From Escherichia phage EO1: a DNA stretch of 64,000 nt. The notes under the pieces are model-generated. The model was not told the origin of the DNA. It did not search any database and was given only the letters and a program-made list of their open reading frames with translations. Within the stretch, counting starts at the first letter, position 1. Every line of letters begins with the position of its first letter. This document shows, one piece after another, positions 5,707-55,780 of this stretch. The translations under genes and the position numbers were made by a program. The stretch lies in the sequence record OQ223305.1; one strand, given 5' to 3'.

Positions 5707-5970
5707 ATGTTTAAAGTATATGGTTATGATAGCAACATCCATAAATGTGTGTATTGTGATAATGCAAAACGTCTTTTGACCGTGAAGAAACAGCCGTTTG
5801 AATTTATCAACATTATGCCGGAAAAAGGTGTTTTTGATGATGAGAAAATCGCTGAGCTTCTGACTAAACTAGGTCGTGATACTCAAATCGGCTTGACAAT
5901 GCCCCAGGTATTTGCTCCTGATGGAAGTCATATTGGTGGATTTGACCAACTGCGAGAATATTTTAAATGA
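5707..5970 (+). CDS. nrdC: phage thioredoxin/glutaredoxin NrdC (87 aa)
   Basis: N-terminus MFKVYGYDSNIHKCVYCDNAKRLL with CVYC redox motif matches T4 NrdC as recalled; 87 aa as in T4. Confidence 0.85.
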   Translation: MFKVYGYDSNIHKCVYCDNAKRLLTVKKQPFEFINIMPEKGVFDDEKIAELLTKLGRDTQIGLTMPQVFAPDGSHIGGFDQLREYFK

Positions 5971-6182
5971 TGCTCGAAGGAACTGACTATATTCATGATT
6001 ACCGCGGAAGCGCGGTATATGTAGGTGATGAAGTTGCAGTTTATTATGGGTATGGAACTTTGATGACAGCCAAGGTTATTCAAATTAAAAATAATCGTGC
6101 TAAACTCGAAGTTTATTATTCTAATGGTGAAAAGTCTATTTCTAAGTGGAAATACGGCGATTGTATGGTTAAATTGGGGTAA
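5967..6182 (+). CDS. hypothetical protein (71 aa)
   Basis: ATG overlaps nrdC stop (ATGA); ORF only. Confidence 0.4.
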   Translation: MMLEGTDYIHDYRGSAVYVGDEVAVYYGYGTLMTAKVIQIKNNRAKLEVYYSNGEKSISKWKYGDCMVKLG

Positions 6183-14252: not shown

Positions 14253-14282
14253 ATCATGAGACTCTTTAAAGAGTCTCATGAT
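14253..14282. repeat. 30-bp perfect palindrome
   Basis: ATCATGAGACTCTTTAAAGAGTCTCATGAT equals its own reverse complement; lies in the gene 55 / alpha-gt intergenic region. Confidence 0.85.
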
Positions 14283-22970: not shown

Positions 22971-25667
22971 ATGAAAGAATTTTATATCTCTATTGAAACA
23001 GTCGGAAATAACATTGTTGAACGTTATATTGATGAAAACGGAAAGGAACGTACTCGTGAAGTAGAATATCTTCCAACTATGTTTAGGCATTGTAAGGAAG
23101 AGTCAAAATACAAAGACATCTATGGTAAAAATTGTGCTCCTCAAAAATTTCCATCAATGAAAGATGCTCGAGATTGGATGAAACGAATGGAAGACATCGG
23201 TCTCGAAGCTCTCGGTATGAACGATTTTAAACTCGCTTATATCAGTGATACATATGGTTCAGAAATTGTTTATGACCGAAAATTTGTTCGTGTAGCTAAC
23301 TGTGACATTGAGGTTACTGGTGATAAATTTCCTGACCCAATGAAAGCTGAATATGAAATTGATGCTATCACTCATTACGATTCAATTGACGATCGTTTTT
23401 ATGTTTTCGACCTTTTGAATTCAATGTATGGTTCAGTATCAAAATGGGATGCAAAGTTAGCTGCTAAGCTTGACTGTGAAGGTGGTGATGAAGTTCCTCA
23501 AGAAATTCTTGACCGAGTAATTTATATGCCATTCGATAATGAGCGTGATATGCTCATGGAATATATTAATCTTTGGGAACAGAAACGACCTGCTATTTTT
23601 ACCGGTTGGAATATTGAGGGATTTGACGTTCCGTATATCATGAATCGCGTTAAAATGGTTCTCGGTGAACGTAGTATGAAACGCTTCTCTCCAATCGGTC
23701 GAGTAAAATCTAAATTAATTCAAAATATGTACGGTAGCAAAGAAATTTATTCTATTGATGGCGTATCTATTCTTGATTATTTAGATTTGTACAAGAAATT
23801 CGCTTTTACTAATTTGCCGTCATTCTCTTTGGAATCAGTTGCTCAACATGAAACCAAAAAAGGTAAATTACCATACGACGGTCCTATTAATAAACTTCGT
23901 GAGACTAATCATCAACGATACATTAGTTATAACATCATTGACGTAGAATCAGTTCAAGCAATTGATAAAATTCGCGGGTTTATCGATCTAGTTTTAAGTA
24001 TGTCTTATTACGCTAAAATGCCTTTTTCCGGTGTAATGAGTCCTATTAAAACTTGGGATGCTATTATTTTTAACTCATTGAAAGGTGAACATAAGGTTAT
24101 TCCTCAACAAGGTTCGCACGTTAAACAGAGTTTTCCGGGTGCATTTGTATTTGAACCTAAACCAATTGCTCGTCGATATATTATGAGTTTTGACTTGACG
24201 TCTCTGTATCCGAGCATTATTCGTCAGGTTAACATTAGTCCTGAAACTATTCGTGGTCAGTTTAAAGTTCATCCAATTCATGAATATATCGCAGGAACAG
24301 CTCCTAAACCGAGTGATGAATATTCTTGTTCTCCGAATGGATGGATGTATGATAAGCATCAAGAAGGTATCATTCCAAAGGAAATCGCTAAAGTATTTTT
24401 CCAGCGTAAAGACTGGAAAAAGAAAATGTTCGCTGAAGAAATGAATGCCGAAGCTATTAAAAAGATTATTATGAAAGGCGCAGGGTCTTGTTCAACTAAA
24501 CCTGAAGTTGAACGATATGTTAAGTTCAGTGATGATTTCTTAAATGAACTATCGAATTATACTGAATCTGTTCTCAATAGTTTGATTGAAGAATGTGAAA
24601 AAGCAGCTACACTTGCTAATACAAATCAGCTGAACCGTAAAATTCTTATTAACAGTCTTTATGGTGCTCTTGGTAATATTCATTTCCGTTACTATGATTT
24701 GCGAAATGCTACTGCTATCACAATTTTCGGCCAAGTTGGTATTCAGTGGATTGCTCGTAAAATTAATGAATACCTGAATAAGGTGTGTGGAACTAATGGC
24801 GAAGATTTCATCGCAGCAGGTGATACTGATTCGGTATATGTTTGTGTAGATAAAGTTATTGAAAAAGTAGGTCTTGACCGCTTTAAAGAACAAAATGATT
24901 TAGTTGAATTCATGAATCAGTTCGGTAAGAAAAAGATGGAACCTATGATTGATGTTGCATATCGTGAGTTATGTGATTATATGAATAACCGCGAGCATCT
25001 GATGCATATGGACCGTGAAGCTATTTCTTGTCCTCCGCTCGGTTCAAAGGGTGTTGGTGGATTTTGGAAAGCGAAAAAACGTTATGCTCTGAACGTTTAT
25101 GATATGGAAGATAAGCGATTTGCTGAACCGCATCTAAAAATCATGGGTATGGAAACTCAGCAAAGTTCAACACCAAAAGCAGTACAAGAAGCTCTTGAAG
25201 AAAGTATTCGTCGTATTCTTCAGGAAGGTGAAGAGTCTGTCCAAGAATATTACAAGAACTTCGAGAAAGAATATCGTCAACTTGACTATAAAGTTATTGC
25301 TGAAGTAAAAACTGCGAACGATATAGCGAAATATGATGATAAAGGTTGGCCAGGGTTTAAATGCCCGTTCCATATTCGCGGTGTGCTAACTTATCGTCGA
25401 GCTGTTAGCGGTCTGGGTGTAGCTCCAATTTTGGATGGAAATAAAGTAATGGTTCTTCCATTACGTGAAGGAAATCCATTTGGCGACAAGTGCATTGCTT
25501 GGCCGTCGGGTACGGAACTTCCAAAAGAAATTCGTTCTGATGTACTGTCTTGGATTGACTACTCAACTTTGTTCCAAAAATCGTTTGTTAAACCGCTTGC
25601 GGGCATGTGTGAATCGGCTGGTATGGACTATGAAGAAAAAGCTTCGTTAGACTTCCTGTTTGGCTGA
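22971..25667 (+). CDS. 43: DNA polymerase gp43 (family B), 898 aa
   Basis: 898 aa; exonuclease and polymerase motifs (DIE, YGDTDS); uninterrupted. Confidence 0.95.
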   Translation: MKEFYISIETVGNNIVERYIDENGKERTREVEYLPTMFRHCKEESKYKDIYGKNCAPQKFPSMKDARDWMKRMEDIGLEALGMNDFKLAYISDTYGSEIVYDRKFVRVANCDIEVTGDKFPDPMKAEYEIDAITHYDSIDDRFYVFDLLNSMYGSVSKWDAKLAAKLDCEGGDEVPQEILDRVIYMPFDNERDMLMEYINLWEQKRPAIFTGWNIEGFDVPYIMNRVKMVLGERSMKRFSPIGRVKSKLIQNMYGSKEIYSIDGVSILDYLDLYKKFAFTNLPSFSLESVAQHETKKGKLPYDGPINKLRETNHQRYISYNIIDVESVQAIDKIRGFIDLVLSMSYYAKMPFSGVMSPIKTWDAIIFNSLKGEHKVIPQQGSHVKQSFPGAFVFEPKPIARRYIMSFDLTSLYPSIIRQVNISPETIRGQFKVHPIHEYIAGTAPKPSDEYSCSPNGWMYDKHQEGIIPKEIAKVFFQRKDWKKKMFAEEMNAEAIKKIIMKGAGSCSTKPEVERYVKFSDDFLNELSNYTESVLNSLIEECEKAATLANTNQLNRKILINSLYGALGNIHFRYYDLRNATAITIFGQVGIQWIARKINEYLNKVCGTNGEDFIAAGDTDSVYVCVDKVIEKVGLDRFKEQNDLVEFMNQFGKKKMEPMIDVAYRELCDYMNNREHLMHMDREAISCPPLGSKGVGGFWKAKKRYALNVYDMEDKRFAEPHLKIMGMETQQSSTPKAVQEALEESIRRILQEGEESVQEYYKNFEKEYRQLDYKVIAEVKTANDIAKYDDKGWPGFKCPFHIRGVLTYRRAVSGLGVAPILDGNKVMVLPLREGNPFGDKCIAWPSGTELPKEIRSDVLSWIDYSTLFQKSFVKPLAGMCESAGMDYEEKASLDFLFG

Positions 25668-25680
25668 TAGAATAAATCTA

Positions 25681-25701
25681 GGGACCTCCAGGTCCCTTTT
25701 T
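25681..25701 (+). terminator. rho-independent terminator after gene 43
   Basis: GGGACCTCCAGGTCCC 25681-25696 followed by TTTTT. Confidence 0.8.
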
Positions 25702-26890: not shown

Positions 26891-27631
26891 ATGATTAGTG
26901 ACTCTATGACAGTTGAAGAAATCCGTCTTCATTTGGGGCTTGCATTAAAAGAAAAAGATTTCGTAGTTGATAAAACCGGTGTTAAAACTATTGAAATTAT
27001 TGGCGCATCATTTGTAGCAGATGAACCGTTTATTTTTGGCGCTCTTAATGATGAATACATTCAGCGTGAACTTGAATGGTATAAATCTAAGAGCTTGTTT
27101 GTTAAAGATATTCCAGGTGAAACACCAAAGATTTGGCAGCAGGTAGCATCTTCTAAAGGCGAAATTAACTCGAATTATGGTTGGGCTATTTGGTCAGAAG
27201 ATAACTATGCCCAGTATGATATGTGTTTAGCTGAACTTGGTCAAAATCCTGATTCTCGGCGTGGTATCATGATTTATACTCGTCCATCCATGCAATTTGA
27301 CTACAATAAAGATGGTATGTCAGATTTCATGTGTACTAATACAGTACAGTACCTGATTCGTGATAAGAAAGTCAATGCGGTTGTTAGCATGAGAAGCAAT
27401 GATTGCTGGGCAGGCTATCGTAATGATTATGCTTGGCAAAAATACGTACTAGATAAATTAGTATCTGATTTGAATGCAGGCGACCCATCGCGGCAATATA
27501 AAGCAGGTTCTATTATATGGAACGTTGGAAGTCTTCATGTGTACGAAAATCAGTTTTATTTAGTTGACCATTGGTGGAATACTGGCGAAACTCATATTGT
27601 GAAAAAAGACTATAAAGGTGAGTGGAAATGA
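26891..27631 (+). CDS. 42: dCMP hydroxymethylase gp42 (246 aa)
   Basis: 246 aa; thymidylate-synthase-like sequence matching T4 gp42 as recalled (MISDSMTVEEIRLHLGLALKEKDF…). Confidence 0.9.
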   Translation: MISDSMTVEEIRLHLGLALKEKDFVVDKTGVKTIEIIGASFVADEPFIFGALNDEYIQRELEWYKSKSLFVKDIPGETPKIWQQVASSKGEINSNYGWAIWSEDNYAQYDMCLAELGQNPDSRRGIMIYTRPSMQFDYNKDGMSDFMCTNTVQYLIRDKKVNAVVSMRSNDCWAGYRNDYAWQKYVLDKLVSDLNAGDPSRQYKAGSIIWNVGSLHVYENQFYLVDHWWNTGETHIVKKDYKGEWK

Positions 27632-28470
27632 TTCAATTCGTAATTCCAAGTTATCAGCGTGTCGGGGCAGTTTCTGCCCTTGATATGTTTCCGACTAATT
27701 ATGAACCCCATATTGTAGTGCGTGAACATGAAGAAAAAGCTTATTATGATGCCTATGGGTCTAGAGCTAAAATTATAACTATTCCTGACGATGTAAATGG
27801 AATTGCTGGTACTCGTAAAGCAATTACTGATATGTATGCAGGTCAACGAATCTGGATGATTGACGATGATACTACTATTCGTATGAGTTCAATGCGAAAA
27901 AGAGATGACCGTCGTTGTGTAGATAAAGTCAATCAATTAACCCGTGAACAGTTCTATGAATTGATTCAATACGTCGAAGATGCCATGGATTGCGGGTATT
28001 ATCATGGCCATGCTCGTCTACCTATTTTTAAAATTACTTCATCTTGGGGTAATTATCGTGAAAATTCATATGGATTCACGAATACATGGTATGACCTCGG
28101 AAAACTTACGACAGAACAAATTGGGTATGGAAAAATTGATTTATGCGAAGATATGTATGCATTTCTCAATTTAATTAATCAAGGTTATCCGCATTTGGCC
28201 TTGTTCAAATATCTGGTTGTATCTGGAAAAGCACAAGCTCCTGGCGGGTGTAGTTCAATTCGTAGTAATTCTAAACATAATAGAGCGCTTGAGCAAATCA
28301 ATAGAGAGTTTCCAGAGCAAGCTCGTTGGAAAACGTCGAATATTGAAAAACGAAAATCGTTGGGTGAAGAAGACGAGCCATTAAAGGTTCTTCGTATGTG
28401 TGTTTCGCGCAAAGAAAAATCAGAAGCATTTCATAAGTTTAATGCTATTCATCCGATAGCAGTTGATTAA
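27628..28470 (+). CDS. glycosyltransferase with DxD (GT-A-like) motif at the beta-gt locus; possible beta-alpha-glucosyl transferase
   Basis: ATG 27628 overlaps the gp42 stop; motif IWMIDDDTTI; sequence does not resemble T4 beta-gt as recalled. Confidence 0.55.
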   Translation: MIQFVIPSYQRVGAVSALDMFPTNYEPHIVVREHEEKAYYDAYGSRAKIITIPDDVNGIAGTRKAITDMYAGQRIWMIDDDTTIRMSSMRKRDDRRCVDKVNQLTREQFYELIQYVEDAMDCGYYHGHARLPIFKITSSWGNYRENSYGFTNTWYDLGKLTTEQIGYGKIDLCEDMYAFLNLINQGYPHLALFKYLVVSGKAQAPGGCSSIRSNSKHNRALEQINREFPEQARWKTSNIEKRKSLGEEDEPLKVLRMCVSRKEKSEAFHKFNAIHPIAVD

Positions 28471-28525
28471 TGCCTAAATTTATTGTGTTATAATTACTCT
28501 ATCTTTAACCAGTGAGGAAAATATA

Positions 28526-28582
28526 ATGATGCCTATGGAAAAAATGAATGTCTATTGTAGATTTAAAATCCCGTTTGATTAA
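28526..28582 (+). CDS. upstream ORF (18 codons) overlapping the uvsX start
   Basis: ATG 28526 sits 8 nt after GAGGAA, whereas the uvsX ATG (28548) has no good SD; uORF MMPMEKMNVYCRFKIPFD ends 34 nt into uvsX in another frame. Confidence 0.3.
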   Translation: MMPMEKMNVYCRFKIPFD

Positions 28583-29729
28583 AGCTTCCACTTCTAAAAT
28601 GACTGCTGAACTGACTACATCTAAATTCTTTAATGAAAAGGATGTAATCCGTACAAAAATTCCAATGCTGAATATTGCTATTTCTGGTGCGATTGATGGC
28701 GGCATGCAGTCTGGTTTAACTATTTTTGCAGGTCCTTCTAAACACTTTAAATCAAATATGTCTTTGACTATGGTTGCGGCATATTTGAACAAATATCCTG
28801 ACGCGGTTTGTCTATTCTATGATAGCGAATTTGGTATTACTCCAGCTTATTTGCGATCCATGGGAGTTGACCCGGAACGAGTAATTCATACGCCAATCCA
28901 GTCAGTTGAACAGCTGAAAATTGATATGGTGAACCAGCTTGAAGCTATTGAGCGGGGTGAAAAAGTTATTGTATTCATCGACTCAATTGGTAATATGGCT
29001 TCTAAGAAAGAAACGGAAGATGCCTTGAATGAAAAATCTGTGGCAGATATGACTCGTGCTAAATCACTGAAGTCATTATTCCGTATTGTTACTCCTTACT
29101 TTAGCATTAAAAATATTCCATGTGTTGCGGTTAACCATACAATTGAAACAATTGAAATGTTTAGTAAAACCGTGATGACAGGCGGTACAGGCGTAATGTA
29201 TTCGGCTGATACTGTATTCATTATCGGTAAACGTCAAATTAAAGATGGTTCTGATCTTCAGGGGTATCAATTTGTTCTAAATGTAGAAAAATCTCGTACC
29301 GTTAAAGAAAAAAGTAAATTCTTTATTGATGTTAAATTTGACGGTGGTATCGATCCTTATTCTGGATTGTTAGATATGGCTCTAGAATTAGGATTTGTAG
29401 TAAAACCTAAGAATGGTTGGTATGCTCGTGAATTTCTTGACGAAGAAACCGGCGAGATGATTCGCGAAGAAAAATCTTGGCGTGCAAAAGATACTAACTG
29501 CACTACATTCTGGGGTCCTTTATTTAAGCATCAACCATTCCGAGATGCTATTAAACGTGCTTACCAGTTAGGTGCTATTGATAGTAATGAAATTGTTGAA
29601 GCTGAAGTTGATGAATTGATTAACTCAAAGGTTGAAAAATTTAAATCTCCAGAAAGTAAAAGTAAATCAGCAGCTGATTTAGAAACTGACCTCGAACAGT
29701 TAAGTGATATGGAAGAATTTAATGAGTAA
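28548..29729 (+). CDS. uvsX: recombinase UvsX (RecA-like), 393 aa
   Basis: Near-identical to T4 UvsX as recalled (…DLKSRLIKASTSK…, GPSKHFKSN Walker A). Confidence 0.9.
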   Translation: MSIVDLKSRLIKASTSKMTAELTTSKFFNEKDVIRTKIPMLNIAISGAIDGGMQSGLTIFAGPSKHFKSNMSLTMVAAYLNKYPDAVCLFYDSEFGITPAYLRSMGVDPERVIHTPIQSVEQLKIDMVNQLEAIERGEKVIVFIDSIGNMASKKETEDALNEKSVADMTRAKSLKSLFRIVTPYFSIKNIPCVAVNHTIETIEMFSKTVMTGGTGVMYSADTVFIIGKRQIKDGSDLQGYQFVLNVEKSRTVKEKSKFFIDVKFDGGIDPYSGLLDMALELGFVVKPKNGWYAREFLDEETGEMIREEKSWRAKDTNCTTFWGPLFKHQPFRDAIKRAYQLGAIDSNEIVEAEVDELINSKVEKFKSPESKSKSAADLETDLEQLSDMEEFNE

Positions 29730-30066
29730 AGATGATTTAGATTTAGATCTAGAAATTATCGATGAATCCCCCTCTTCGGAGGGGGAAGAAGAAAGAAAAG
29801 AACGTCTTTTTAATGAATCTCTTAAGATAATTAAATCCGCTATGGAAAATGTTATCCAGGAGATTGTCATTAAACTAGAAGATGGTTCTACACATATAGT
29901 GTATGTGACAAAATTAGATTGGGTTGATGGAAAGGTTGTAATGGACTTTGCTGTTCTTGACCAAGAAAGAAAAGCTGAGTTAGCTCCTCATGTAGAAAAA
30001 TGTATTACAATGCAACTACAAGATGCATTTAATAAAAGGTCAAAGAAAAAATTTAAATTCTTTTAA
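29722..30066 (+). CDS. 40: head vertex assembly chaperone gp40 (114 aa)
   Basis: ATG 29722 overlaps the uvsX stop; size and position match T4 gene 40. Confidence 0.65.
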   Translation: MSKDDLDLDLEIIDESPSSEGEEERKERLFNESLKIIKSAMENVIQEIVIKLEDGSTHIVYVTKLDWVDGKVVMDFAVLDQERKAELAPHVEKCITMQLQDAFNKRSKKKFKFF

Positions 30067-30075
30067 GGAGTAAGT

Positions 30076-31503
30076 GTGGTAGAAATTATTCTTTCTCATC
30101 TCATATTTGATCAAGCTTATTTTTCAAAAGTTTGGCCATATATGGATTCAGAATATTTTGAAAGTGGTCCAGCTAAAAATACATTCAAATTAATTAAATC
30201 TCATGTTAATGAGTACCATAGCGTTCCATCTATTAATGCGTTAAATGTTGCATTAGAAAATAGTTCATTTACTGAAACAGAATATTCTGGTGTAAAAACA
30301 CTTATTTCAAAACTGGCTGATTCTCCAGAAGACCACAGCTGGTTAGTAAAAGAAACAGAAAAATATGTTCAGCAAAGGGCGATGTTTAACGCCACATCTA
30401 AAATAATTGAAATTCAAACTAATGCTGAGCTTCCTCCAGAAAAACGAAATAAGAAAATGCCAGATGTTGGTGCTATTCCTGACATCATGCGACAAGCATT
30501 ATCAATTTCATTTGATAGTTATGTTGGTCATGATTGGATGGATGACTACGAAGCACGTTGGCTATCTTATATGAATAAAGCTCGTAAGGTTCCATTTAGA
30601 CTCAAAATTCTAAATAAAATTACTAAAGGCGGAGCTGAGACTGGAACACTGAACGTTTTAATGGCTGGCGTTAACGTTGGTAAATCATTAGGACTTTGTT
30701 CATTAGCAGCAGATTATTTGCAGCTTGGTCATAACGTTCTTTATATCTCCATGGAAATGGCAGAAGAAGTCTGTGCTAAACGTATTGATGCTAATATGCT
30801 CGATGTTTCTCTTGATGACATTGATGATGGACATATTTCTTATGCCGAGTATAAAGGAAAAATGGAAAAATGGCGTGAGAAATCTACTCTCGGTCGTTTA
30901 ATCGTTAAACAGTACCCTACTGGTGGAGCAGACGCTAATACATTCAGGTCTCTCTTGAATGAATTGAAGCTCAAAAAGAATTTTGTTCCAACAATCATTA
31001 TTGTCGACTATCTAGGTATTTGTAAATCTTGCCGCATTAGAGTTTACTCAGAAAATAGTTACACAACTGTTAAAGCCATTGCAGAGGAATTGCGTGCTCT
31101 TGCTGTTGAAACCGAAACTGTTCTTTGGACTGCAGCACAGGTTGGTAAGCAAGCTTGGGATTCTTCTGATGTTAACATGAGCGATATTGCAGAATCTGCC
31201 GGTCTTCCAGCAACAGCCGATTTTATGCTTGCGGTCATTGAAACCGAGGAGTTAGCAGCTGCTGAACAACAACTAATTAAGCAAATCAAATCACGATATG
31301 GTGATAAGAATAAATGGAATAAGTTTTTGATGGGTGTTCAAAAGGGAAATCAGAAATGGGTAGAAATTGAACAAGATTCTACTCCAACTGAAGTGAGTGA
31401 AGTAGCAGGTTCACAACAGATTCAGGCTGAACAGAATCGCTATCAAAGAAATGAATCTACTCGAGCTCAGTTAGATGCTTTGGCAAATGAATTAAAATTT
31501 TAG
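30076..31503 (+). CDS. 41: replicative DNA helicase gp41 (DnaB-like), 475 aa
   Basis: 475 aa, GTG start; Walker A GVNVGKS; matches T4 gp41 as recalled. Confidence 0.9.
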   Translation: MVEIILSHLIFDQAYFSKVWPYMDSEYFESGPAKNTFKLIKSHVNEYHSVPSINALNVALENSSFTETEYSGVKTLISKLADSPEDHSWLVKETEKYVQQRAMFNATSKIIEIQTNAELPPEKRNKKMPDVGAIPDIMRQALSISFDSYVGHDWMDDYEARWLSYMNKARKVPFRLKILNKITKGGAETGTLNVLMAGVNVGKSLGLCSLAADYLQLGHNVLYISMEMAEEVCAKRIDANMLDVSLDDIDDGHISYAEYKGKMEKWREKSTLGRLIVKQYPTGGADANTFRSLLNELKLKKNFVPTIIIVDYLGICKSCRIRVYSENSYTTVKAIAEELRALAVETETVLWTAAQVGKQAWDSSDVNMSDIAESAGLPATADFMLAVIETEELAAAEQQLIKQIKSRYGDKNKWNKFLMGVQKGNQKWVEIEQDSTPTEVSEVAGSQQIQAEQNRYQRNESTRAQLDALANELKF

Positions 31504-31537
31504 TTTACAAGCTGACGAGACTATGGTATAGTAGTCT
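31503..31537 (+). promoter_or_regulatory. early promoter for dmd with -10 inside a stem-loop
   Basis: GTTTAC 31503-31508; TATAGT 31527-31532 lies between inverted repeat AGACTA (31518-31523) / TAGTCT (31532-31537). Confidence 0.6.
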
Positions 31538-31561
31538 TGTTGGTTAAATGAGGAGATTGTT

Positions 31562-31744
31562 ATGGAATTGGTAAAGGTAGTTTTTATGGGGTGGTTTAAG
31601 AATGAAAGCATGTTTACTAAAGAAACCACAATGATGAAAGATGACGTTCAATGGGCTACTACTCAGTATGCTGAAGTTAATAAAGCATTAGTTAAAGCTT
31701 TCATTGATGACAAGAAAGTATGTGAAGTGGATTGCCGAGGATAA
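31562..31744 (+). CDS. dmd: Dmd (discriminator of mRNA degradation; antitoxin against RnlA/LsoA), 60 aa
   Basis: 60 aa, first gene after 41 behind its own early promoter, as for T4 dmd (61.5). Confidence 0.65.
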   Translation: MELVKVVFMGWFKNESMFTKETTMMKDDVQWATTQYAEVNKALVKAFIDDKKVCEVDCRG

Positions 31745-31745
31745 T

Positions 31746-32003
31746 ATGCATATTGTTTTATTTAAACCTACTCCGTATAACGTTAGGAAAAATACTCAAT
31801 TCAAAGCACTTATTGCAGATACGTGGGAATTGGTGTTAGATATTCCATCAGAAGAAAGTCCTCCATTTGGTCGAGTGGAATTTATTAAGTTTGCTGTGCG
31901 CCCTACGAAGCGACAGATTCGTCAGTGTAAAAGGTATTTTCGTAAGATTGTTAAGCTAGAGAAACAGTTTGTAACATGTGATTATGCAGAAGTTTTAAAA
32001 TAA
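31746..32003 (+). CDS. hypothetical basic protein (85 aa), 61.4 position; possible TifA-like anti-toxin factor
   Basis: ATG 31746 overlaps the dmd stop; basic C-terminal half. Functional call is positional only. Confidence 0.4.
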   Translation: MHIVLFKPTPYNVRKNTQFKALIADTWELVLDIPSEESPPFGRVEFIKFAVRPTKRQIRQCKRYFRKIVKLEKQFVTCDYAEVLK

Positions 32004-35385: not shown

Positions 35386-35393
35386 TAATTCAA

Positions 35394-35417
35394 GGACTCC
35401 CTAGGGAGTCCTTTTTT
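35394..35417 (+). terminator. rho-independent terminator after soc
   Basis: GGACTCCCTAGGGAGTCC 35394-35411 followed by TTTTTT. Confidence 0.85.
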
Positions 35418-55749: not shown

Positions 55750-55754
55750 TTTTA

Positions 55755-55780
55755 GGGAGAGCCGAGGCTCTCCCTTTTTT
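55755..55780 (+). terminator. rho-independent terminator upstream of the motA promoter
   Basis: GGGAGAGCCGAGGCTCTCCC 55755-55774 followed by TTTTTT. Confidence 0.85.

Follow-up and report, generated by a model that had tools for sequence, protein, structure and literature searches.

A stretch of 64,000 nucleotides (nt) of the genome of Escherichia phage EO1 (OQ223305.1), referred to below as the window, contains a G/C-rich hairpin with a UUCG tetraloop. The hairpin lies inside the coding sequence of gene 40, just downstream of the stop codon of the recombinase gene uvsX. The locus raises the question of why such a structure is present in a translated sequence of an AT-rich genome, and whether it is the encoded peptide, the DNA or the RNA that accounts for it. 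The first-pass annotation, made from the sequence alone, had proposed that the hairpin may act as a 3' stability element for the uvsX mRNA or as a processing or pause site. It was found that the hairpin is under RNA-level selection and that this selection is specific to the mRNA strand.

Conservation of the stem and selection on the mRNA strand

All factual statements of the annotation concerning the hairpin were correct. The arms CCCCCTC (29768–29774) and GAGGGGG (29779–29785) enclose the loop TTCG (29775–29778). Counted from the A of the gene 40 ATG, the stem starts after 46 nt; counted from the uvsX stop codon TAA (29727–29729), which overlaps with the gene 40 start, it starts after 39 nt. 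Past the 3' arm, the first 10 nt (AGAAGAAAGA) contain 0 U, that is, a U-tract is absent as claimed, and the G+C content of the window is 34.8%. A flanking T-A pair (29767/29786) lengthens the stem from 7 to 8 base pairs (bp), six of which are G-C pairs. Folded in isolation, the 20-mer has a predicted stability of -15.9 kcal/mol, and in a 34-nt context the value is -16.7 kcal/mol, which ranks the hairpin first among the + strand UUCG hairpins of the window and third among its perfect hairpins with a 4-nt loop. Taken together, the surrounding 161 nt show no exceptional degree of structure (z = -1.8), and the structural signal at the locus is a single helix.

In order to estimate the contribution of chance, 200 first-order Markov simulations of 64 kilobases (kb) each were used. 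The mean count per simulated sequence was 0.02 for hairpins with a 4-nt loop and a stem of 7 bp or more that includes no fewer than 6 G/C pairs, and a hairpin as stable as -15.9 kcal/mol was present in 3 of the 200 sequences. The seven codons of the stem include the rarest synonymous choices of the window, namely CCC (2.4% of Pro), TCC and TCG (4.8% and 5.2% of Ser), GGG (7.7% of Gly) and GAG (15.8% of Glu). An Rfam search of the region 28000–31600 (E up to 10) gave no family match; the only two hits (E = 2.3 and 6.2) were at chance level and far under the gathering scores. A RegB target was also considered and rejected, as the stem sequesters GGAG (29778–29781) and relatives do not retain the motif (it is GGAA in RB69, and the group-B stems differ).

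To evaluate conservation, gene 40 starts were collected from IMG/VR contigs and GenBank phages. The corresponding position of gene 40 carries a strong hairpin (-12.5 to -22 kcal/mol) in ten genera (Tequatrovirus, Mosigvirus, Karamvirus, Gelderlandvirus, Jiaodavirus, Kanagawavirus, Gaprivervirus, Dhakavirus, Marfavirus and Muldoonvirus) and in unclassified IMG/VR lineages. At least 10 unrelated stems were present among these relatives (Table 1), and they encode different peptides, including SPSSEGE, SPSEEGD, APLEEGE, EGPSDPR, EGAKAPS, EESSDEDS and LAGETQP. The tetraloop is variable as well (UCAG, UUUG, GGAA, GAAG, CUAGU, UAAG and others); since UUCG is often replaced, the conserved feature is the stem and not the tetraloop. 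Conservation at the RNA level, on which the annotation had made its proposal depend, thus extends over ten genera despite the change of both sequence and peptide.

Table 1. Hairpins at the homologous gene 40 site and in the spacer after uvsX, written as 5' arm-loop-3' arm
Lineage	Location	Hairpin	3' tail
T4 / Karamvirus	gene 40	CCCCCUC-UUCG-GAGGGGG	
RB69	gene 40	CCCCUUC-UUCG-GAAGGGG	
Gelderlandvirus	gene 40	CCCCCUC-UCAG-GAGGGGG	
Jiaodavirus	gene 40	UCUCCCUC-GGAA-GAGGGAGA	
Marfavirus	gene 40	AAGCUCCCCUU-GAAG-AAGGGGAGUUU	
Kanagawavirus	gene 40	GUGCCGAGGGUC-CUAGU-GACCCUCGGUAU	
Gaprivervirus	gene 40	UGCGGAGGGAGC-UAAG-GCUCCUUCUGUA	
Dhakavirus	gene 40	GAGGGUC-CUAGU-GACCCUC	
L031	gene 40	GAGGGCC-CUAGU-GGCCCUC	
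L040	gene 40	GAGGGUCA-CUA-UGACCCUC	
L041	gene 40	GGAAUCCUC-UGAU-GAGGAUUCC	
L042	gene 40	GAGUCCUC-AAAC-GAGGACUC	
Muldoonvirus	gene 40	ACUGGCUGGG-GAAA-CUCAGCCAGU	
RB43	spacer	GGGGGC-AUAA-GCCCCC	no U-tract
AYL	spacer	UAUGGGGC-UUCG-GCCCCAUA	no U-tract
Ac42	spacer	AAGGGAC-UUCG-GUCCCUU	UUUU
ECD7	spacer	AAAGGGGC-UACGU-GCCCCUUU	UU
PX29	spacer	AAAGGGGGC-GAAA-GCCCCUUU	partially U-rich
Vibrio 6E35.1a	spacer	AAGCCGC-UUUUA-GCGGCUU	U7

Compensatory changes were observed at several positions. In RB69, a C-G pair is replaced by U-A through two synonymous changes, so that synonymous substitutions preserving the stem in related phages, which the annotation had suggested looking for, do exist. A series U-A, U·G, C-G is seen across the lineages L035, L032 and L031, and an A-U pair changes to G-C between L041 and L042. 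The T4-type alignment was anchored on a downstream peptide motif, and the hairpin was not used for anchoring. RNAalifold, applied to an alignment not fitted to structure, returned exactly this helix as the sole consensus structure of the T4-type group. In the T4-type alignment A2, 98.4% of the cells were paired, compared with at most 83% when the partner was slid, and its covariation score was matched by 2 of 500 shuffles. The all-lineage group-B alignment (A3) contained too many gaps for counting pairs; its alignable Kanagawa/Dhaka subset of 12 sequences was used instead and gave the same helix. The stems are near-invariant within a genus and within-group covariation is modest, and therefore the weight of the argument lies on the turnover between genera.

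To separate the RNA structure from the peptide that it encodes, codons 6–45 of gene 40 were resampled synonymously 300 times, using the codon usage of each phage. The observed stability was reached in 0–9 of 300 resamples in eight of nine genera: in none for the window, Melville, PEi26 and Marfa, and in 1, 2, 5 and 9 for VPA32, RB69, VR20 and pKp20, respectively. For AnYang (Dhakavirus) the count was 35/300, which is not significant alone. The folding of gene 40 was equal to the resampling null in RB43, Ac42 and AbTZA1. A stricter null, in which synonymous codons were permuted within gene 40, was less decisive: the observed stability was reached in 2/300 permutations for the window, in 10–13/300 for RB69 and Karam and in 46/300 for VR20. 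This null retains the rare G/C codons and gives the weaker result. The sense strand was more stable than the antisense strand in 20 of 21 alleles, and the stems include up to three G·U pairs; both observations indicate that the selected object is an RNA on the mRNA strand. The stem appears to dictate the peptide of its coding sequence, and RNA-level selection of this strength in many genera marks a functional element.

It is very improbable that the hairpin is a by-product of the encoded peptide, a chance event or a palindrome that acts at the level of DNA, for instance as a protein binding site or cruciform. Peptides of the Pro-Ser...Glu-Gly type do carry some inherent palindromic potential, and the resampling nulls average -8 to -12 kcal/mol and not 0; however, the peptides change among genera and the hairpin stays, the rarest codons are used and resampling seldom restores the stability, so the peptide explanation was rejected, as was a double-stranded DNA palindrome in view of the G·U pairs and the strand asymmetry, and chance would supply only 0.02 such hairpins per window. 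A frequent lack of any stem among relatives whose gp40 is intact, which would speak for these explanations, was not seen.

The alignments also contained some irregular sequences. In L014:1462–1563 (IMG/VR contig 2974573174), the 5' arm is one C shorter (CCCCTC against GAGGGGG), which shifts the gene 40 frame and weakens the stem; this is probably a homopolymer sequencing error, and it could alternatively be a natural variant. In RB69 gene 40 (L017:686–1027), the central part of gp40 (…HHISLYYKTSTGLMVKSKWTLQFL…) aligns with no other gp40, and both flanks do align, which suggests a putative pair of compensating frameshifts, either in the deposited sequence or in the phage. A weak A/U-rich hairpin was seen 5' of the main stem, in the acidic D-L-D-L repeat (columns 23–37 of alignment A4, e.g., L024:629–730; about 29736–29752 in the window). 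It shows two apparent double changes between the Dhaka-type and Kanagawa-type sequences. All of them are third-position A/T to G/C changes in one clade and may be a composition artefact.

Position after uvsX and the stem-loop of T4

The hairpin covers codons 16–22 of gene 40 (S-P-S-S-E-G-E), within an acidic N-terminal extension of gp40 of about 30 residues. This extension is missing from RB43, Ac42, AP1, ECD7 and AYL. In phages with a spacer after uvsX, a strong hairpin was found within the spacer, 6–22 nt past the stop codon (Table 1), and a hairpin follows uvsX also where the next gene is not gene 40 (CP81, S-CAM9 and PX29). At overlapping uvsX/40 junctions of the ATGA type, the hairpin is inside gene 40 and is centred 45–70 nt after the stop. 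The post-uvsX hairpin was the top local structure of the scanned 1.6–3.6 kb in 11 of 20 lineages and the first or second in 16 of 20. AbTZA1 has the gp40 extension, no recognisable uvsX before gene 40 and no such hairpin. The spacer hairpins and the extension-less gp40 of the outgroups support the conclusion that the element belongs to the 3' end of uvsX and not to gene 40, and it is very likely that we are dealing with a selected RNA element of this 3' end. An intergenic post-uvsX hairpin and the gene 40 extension would have come to overlap. More generally, the locus would then represent a regulatory RNA hairpin that outlives the loss of its intergenic spacer and is read through as protein.

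The T4 record bears directly on this element. According to Kim et al. 2025 (PMC12152347), who cite Hinton 1989, a stem-loop located between -358 and -1 of T4 gene 41 is directly followed by an RNA 3' end in vivo, and more RNA ends at this gene 40 site in a rho mutant. The region corresponds to 29718–30075 of the window, with 9 substitutions in 358 nt, none of them within the hairpin. The T4 hairpin CCCCCTCTTCGGAGGGGG (AF158101, 22330–22347) is identical to that of the window (-16.7 kcal/mol), and the next best local structure in the T4 region reaches only -8.2 kcal/mol. Because the hairpin is the only strong stem-loop there, it is very probably the one adjoining the in-vivo 3' end, and for T4 the element is accordingly not new (Hinton 1989, J Biol Chem 264:14432 and 14440, as redrawn in Fig. 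5B of Kim et al. 2025); the window comes from an AR1-type relative.

The annotation was unaware of this description. It had also made its proposal depend on transcript ends in the vicinity, and the T4 end just past the stem-loop (PMC12152347) is such an end if the stem-loop is identified as above. Among the roles that it had suggested, an element of the uvsX 3' end is supported by conservation, the T4 3' end and the outgroups; it may be a stability element, a processing site or a site of termination or pausing. In the literature searched, neither the deep conservation of the stem nor its positional equivalence with other post-uvsX hairpins was found, and no T4 Term-seq or other genome-wide 3'-end dataset was found in the literature. 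The additions made here are modest: the stem is deeply conserved as a structure within a translated gene, and it corresponds in position to the hairpins that other T4-like phages carry in the spacer after uvsX. The site is also of interest because T4 RNA ends are more frequent there in rho (nusD) hosts. The description of this phenotype dates from the 1980s, and it was still being studied in 2025 with GoF(D25Y) and the stability of gene 41 mRNA.

The hairpin shares its loop-closing motif with the C(UUCG)G class of T4 (Tuerk et al. 1988, PNAS 85:1364). As far as this class is described in later papers (PMC4371310, PMC8948821), the likeness comprises the motif on a G/C stem, high predicted stability and location on the early/middle mRNA strand. 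The class is marked by unusual thermodynamic stability and a block to reverse transcriptase; for the gene 40 hairpin, -15.9 to -16.7 kcal/mol is predicted. In these descriptions the members of the class are intercistronic; in contrast, the gene 40 hairpin lies in a coding sequence. Its stem (7–8 bp, -16 kcal/mol) is stronger than those of the eight other UUCG hairpins of the window (-8.8 to -12.1 kcal/mol), and its UUCG loop is dispensable in relatives.

A proposed exonuclease barrier and competing explanations

No convincing promoter was found between PuvsX and gene 41 using a MotA-box/-10 pattern and a sigma-70 scan. For this reason the hairpin is not regarded as part of a promoter, and RNA of genes 40 and 41 must pass it. 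The closest promoter 5' of the hairpin is a PuvsX-like site with a MotA-box-like ATGCCTAAA (28470–28478), followed by TGTTATAAT, and a -10 hexamer TATAAT at 28489–28494; PuvsX is described as a promoter of the middle class that precedes uvsX and has a perfect -10 (PMC2988021). In a T4 RNA-seq study, uvsX and 41/61 were treated as one region that is fed by upstream early promoters and PmuvsX (PMC6024815).

As a whole, we lean slightly towards the proposal that a selected sense-strand hairpin marks the 3' boundary of the uvsX message, blocks 3' exonucleases and sets the uvsX mRNA apart from 40–41; for the barrier mechanism specifically, the case appears to be about evenly balanced. The boundary would lie within a PuvsX-uvsX-40-41 transcription unit. 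The overlap of uvsX and gene 40 leaves no spacer to hold a hairpin, and the element would be placed about 45–70 nt past the uvsX stop, in the tolerant acidic extension of gp40, where ribosomes that finish uvsX or start on gene 40 would not reach it. In transcripts cut or ending downstream, host exonucleases would trim the RNA in the 3'-to-5' direction up to the stem. The outcome would be a stable uvsX mRNA ending just past the hairpin and a faster decay of the 40–41 part, possibly with weak factor-dependent termination or pausing at the hairpin in addition. The uvsX message would then exceed the 40/41 message, and expression of the essential helicase gene 41 would rely on RNA that survives or reads past the hairpin. 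The phage requires much more UvsX than gp40 or gp41 helicase, and all three come from one read-through unit; a hairpin at which the RNA ends or is shielded directly behind uvsX would be a simple means to set their ratio.

A stable, structurally conserved stem-loop downstream of the protected cistron, as expected of a hairpin that blocks 3' exonucleases, is present here. Intercistronic stem-loops such as the repetitive extragenic palindromic (REP) hairpins of malE-malF and the hairpin of Rhodobacter puf block 3' exonucleases, so that segments of one operon mRNA differ in stability. The logic proposed here matches theirs, with a stable stem-loop after a highly expressed cistron, 3' ends past the stem and differential expression. 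However, those elements are intergenic and unrelated in sequence, the gene 40 stem is translated in the next gene, and the stabilisation of uvsX is a proposal only. A barrier is favoured because of the missing U-tract, the nuclease-protection model of nusD, Rop and goF and the half-life effect of GoF(D25Y). In the review of Hinton 2010 (PMC2988021), nusD Rho proteins do not simply terminate more, mutant nusD Rho is not more terminating in vitro, and growth is rescued by extra mutant Rho or by the RNA-binding protein Rop. The effects of nusD, Rop and goF are interpreted there as protection of delayed-early RNA from nuclease attack, not as added termination. GoF(D25Y) acts post-transcriptionally, giving a longer half-life to reporter RNA that carries the T4 358-nt region (PMC12152347). 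In contrast to the gene 40 hairpin, terminator-like hairpins of the same window (25680, 35392 and 55754) carry T5-6 tails.

Some points weigh against this proposal. Exonuclease trimming, rather than termination, as the origin of the 3' end is something that we infer. Ribosomes translating gene 40 must repeatedly melt the hairpin and would run off the 3' end of a truncated RNA; as gene 40 is translated through the stem, a stabiliser is less straightforward here than in an intergenic position. The number of U in the 10 nt past the stem varies from 0 to 6 among relatives, so that a U-tract is not conserved, and the L041, L042 and Dhaka-type alleles have 5–6. In view of these U-rich tails and of the canonical terminators in outgroups, termination may be the ancestral or even the current activity.

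The main rival is accordingly leaky or translation-sensitive termination, which we consider a serious possibility, albeit with a probability well under one half. The nascent hairpin would act as a leaky terminator, pause site or attenuator and stop some polymerases, possibly with NusA, NusG or Rho; in one variant it may be active only when gene 40 is untranslated, which would couple gene 41 transcription to translation. Some in-group alleles have the U-rich tails mentioned above, and the post-uvsX hairpins of Vibrio phage 6E35.1a, Krischvirus ECD7 and Acinetobacter Ac42 resemble intrinsic terminators with U-tracts, with a partially U-rich tail in Aeromonas PX29. These four terminators are likewise G/C-rich and are the first strong structure past the uvsX stop. 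They lie in a spacer of 35–75 nt, 6–22 nt past the stop, mostly with U-tracts, whereas the T4-type element is inside gene 40, is centred about 48 nt past the stop and is followed by purines. It thus has the G/C-rich stem-loop of an intrinsic terminator and lacks the U-tract immediately 3' of it. The additional RNA ends in the rho mutant were initially read as termination (PMC12152347; PMC2988021), and delayed-early RNA is lost when translation is blocked (PMC2988021). However, the T4-type allele has 0 U in the 10 nt past the stem, and for lack of a U-tract the hairpin was not called by the consensus terminator scan, which gave no + strand site in 28000–32000. The in-vitro behaviour of nusD Rho, the rescue by Rop and the action of GoF(D25Y) on RNA half-life also argue against termination (PMC2988021; PMC12152347).

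More tentatively, and with a rather low probability, the hairpin could be a translation-sensitive checkpoint. Ribosomes on gene 40 would keep the stem melted, and the RNA would continue or survive into gene 41; when translation lags, the stem would form and the RNA would end there by termination or exonuclease arrest. The hairpin would then be the physical target behind the T4 nusD(rho)/goF/Rop phenotype, and it would have been retained in this role once the gene 40 extension had taken up what was ancestrally an intergenic terminator of uvsX. The natural stem variants provide a ready set for testing termination against decay.

It is unlikely that the hairpin is a 5'-proximal shield of a processed gene 41 mRNA, in which cleavage upstream of the hairpin would leave the stem-loop at a 5' end resistant to 5'-end-dependent RNase E. 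A stabilising effect on T4 mRNA is reported for hairpins at 5' ends, among them a CUUCGG hairpin in the leader of gene 32 (PMC8948821), and the full 358-nt region with the hairpin showed the largest effect of GoF(D25Y) on reporter RNA stability (PMC12152347). However, the end adjoining the stem-loop is reported in the latter paper as a 3' and not a 5' end. The outgroup hairpins come directly after the uvsX stop and often have U-tracts, and a hairpin is present where neither gene 40 nor gene 41 is next (CP81, PX29 and S-CAM9). We know of no cleavage site upstream of the hairpin, which also counts against a shield.

A translational element of gene 40, which would slow early ribosomes to limit gp40 output or to aid folding or membrane targeting, is even harder to credit: the position of the hairpin relative to the gene 40 start is kept in ten genera and gp40 is required in small amounts only, but phages without the gp40 extension have the hairpin outside the gene, after uvsX, AbTZA1 has the extension without a hairpin, and the stem is outside the initiation footprint and of a kind that elongating ribosomes unwind.

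Genomic setting and other hairpins of the window

The window belongs to an AR1/T4-type Tequatrovirus, and 1 kb around the hairpin is 99.1% identical to phage vB_EcoM_112. The UvsX protein has 100% identity to that of phage AR1 and 91% to that of T4. Unlike in T4, the homing-endonuclease gene segA is absent between uvsX and the preceding open reading frame (ORF) of 282 amino acids (aa; 27622–28470) in the region 27622–28547, and the spacer between this ORF and uvsX contains only the PuvsX-like promoter. The features of the locus are listed in Table 2.

Table 2. Features of the uvsX–40–41 locus in the window
Feature	Position	Strand	Basis or remark
PuvsX-like middle promoter	28470–28494	+	Read from sequence; putative function
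uvsX (RecA-like recombinase, 393 aa)	28548–29729	+	ORF list and annotation in matching records
Gene 40 (head vertex assembly chaperone, 114 aa)	29722–30066	+	ATG at 29722; agrees with the T4 annotation of a 345-nt gene
5' arm (U)CCCCCUC	29767–29774	+	
UUCG tetraloop with C-G closing pair, C(UUCG)G motif	29775–29778	+	
3' arm GAGGGGG(A)	29779–29786	+	
Purine-rich tail AGAAGAAAGAAAAGAACG	29787–29804	+	In place of a U-tract
Gene 41 (replicative helicase, GTG start)	30076–31503	+	Downstream gene; its mRNA must read through the hairpin

The gene 41 stop is directly followed by a hairpin of 15 bp (31510–31545, -18.6 kcal/mol) that includes G·U pairs. This hairpin overlaps a strong promoter-like site, TTTACA-17-TATAGT (31504–31532), and could mark the 3' end of the uvsX-40-41 unit.

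Hairpins of the same loop type are frequent in the window. CTTCGG occurs 28 times against 12.9 expected, and there are 54 perfect hairpins with a 4-nt loop and a stem of 6 bp or more, twice the simulated number of 26.8. On the + strand, C(UUCG)G hairpins lie between genes just past stop codons at eight sites (11998, 14366, 15636, 22895, 46236, 51517, 51746 and 53951); they are typically AAGGGC-TTCG-GCCCTT, with T-runs in some only. A 13-bp perfect palindrome, ATCATGAGACTCT-TTAA-AGAGTCTCATGAT (14253–14282, -18.6 kcal/mol on either strand), lies between genes, with another UUCG hairpin about 85 nt downstream of it.

A layout like that of uvsX/40 was observed after nrdC (thioredoxin; ORF 5707–5970). 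The hairpin TACCGCG-GAAG-CGCGGTA (6000–6017, -11.1 kcal/mol) is 30 nt past the nrdC stop and inside the overlapping ORF 5967–6182, with an ATGA junction, so that here too a post-stop hairpin lies in the next gene. Canonical terminator-like hairpins with T5-6 tails were found at 25680–25697, 35392–35413 and 55754–55775, the first of which follows an ORF of 898 aa (22971–25667) that has the size of a DNA polymerase.

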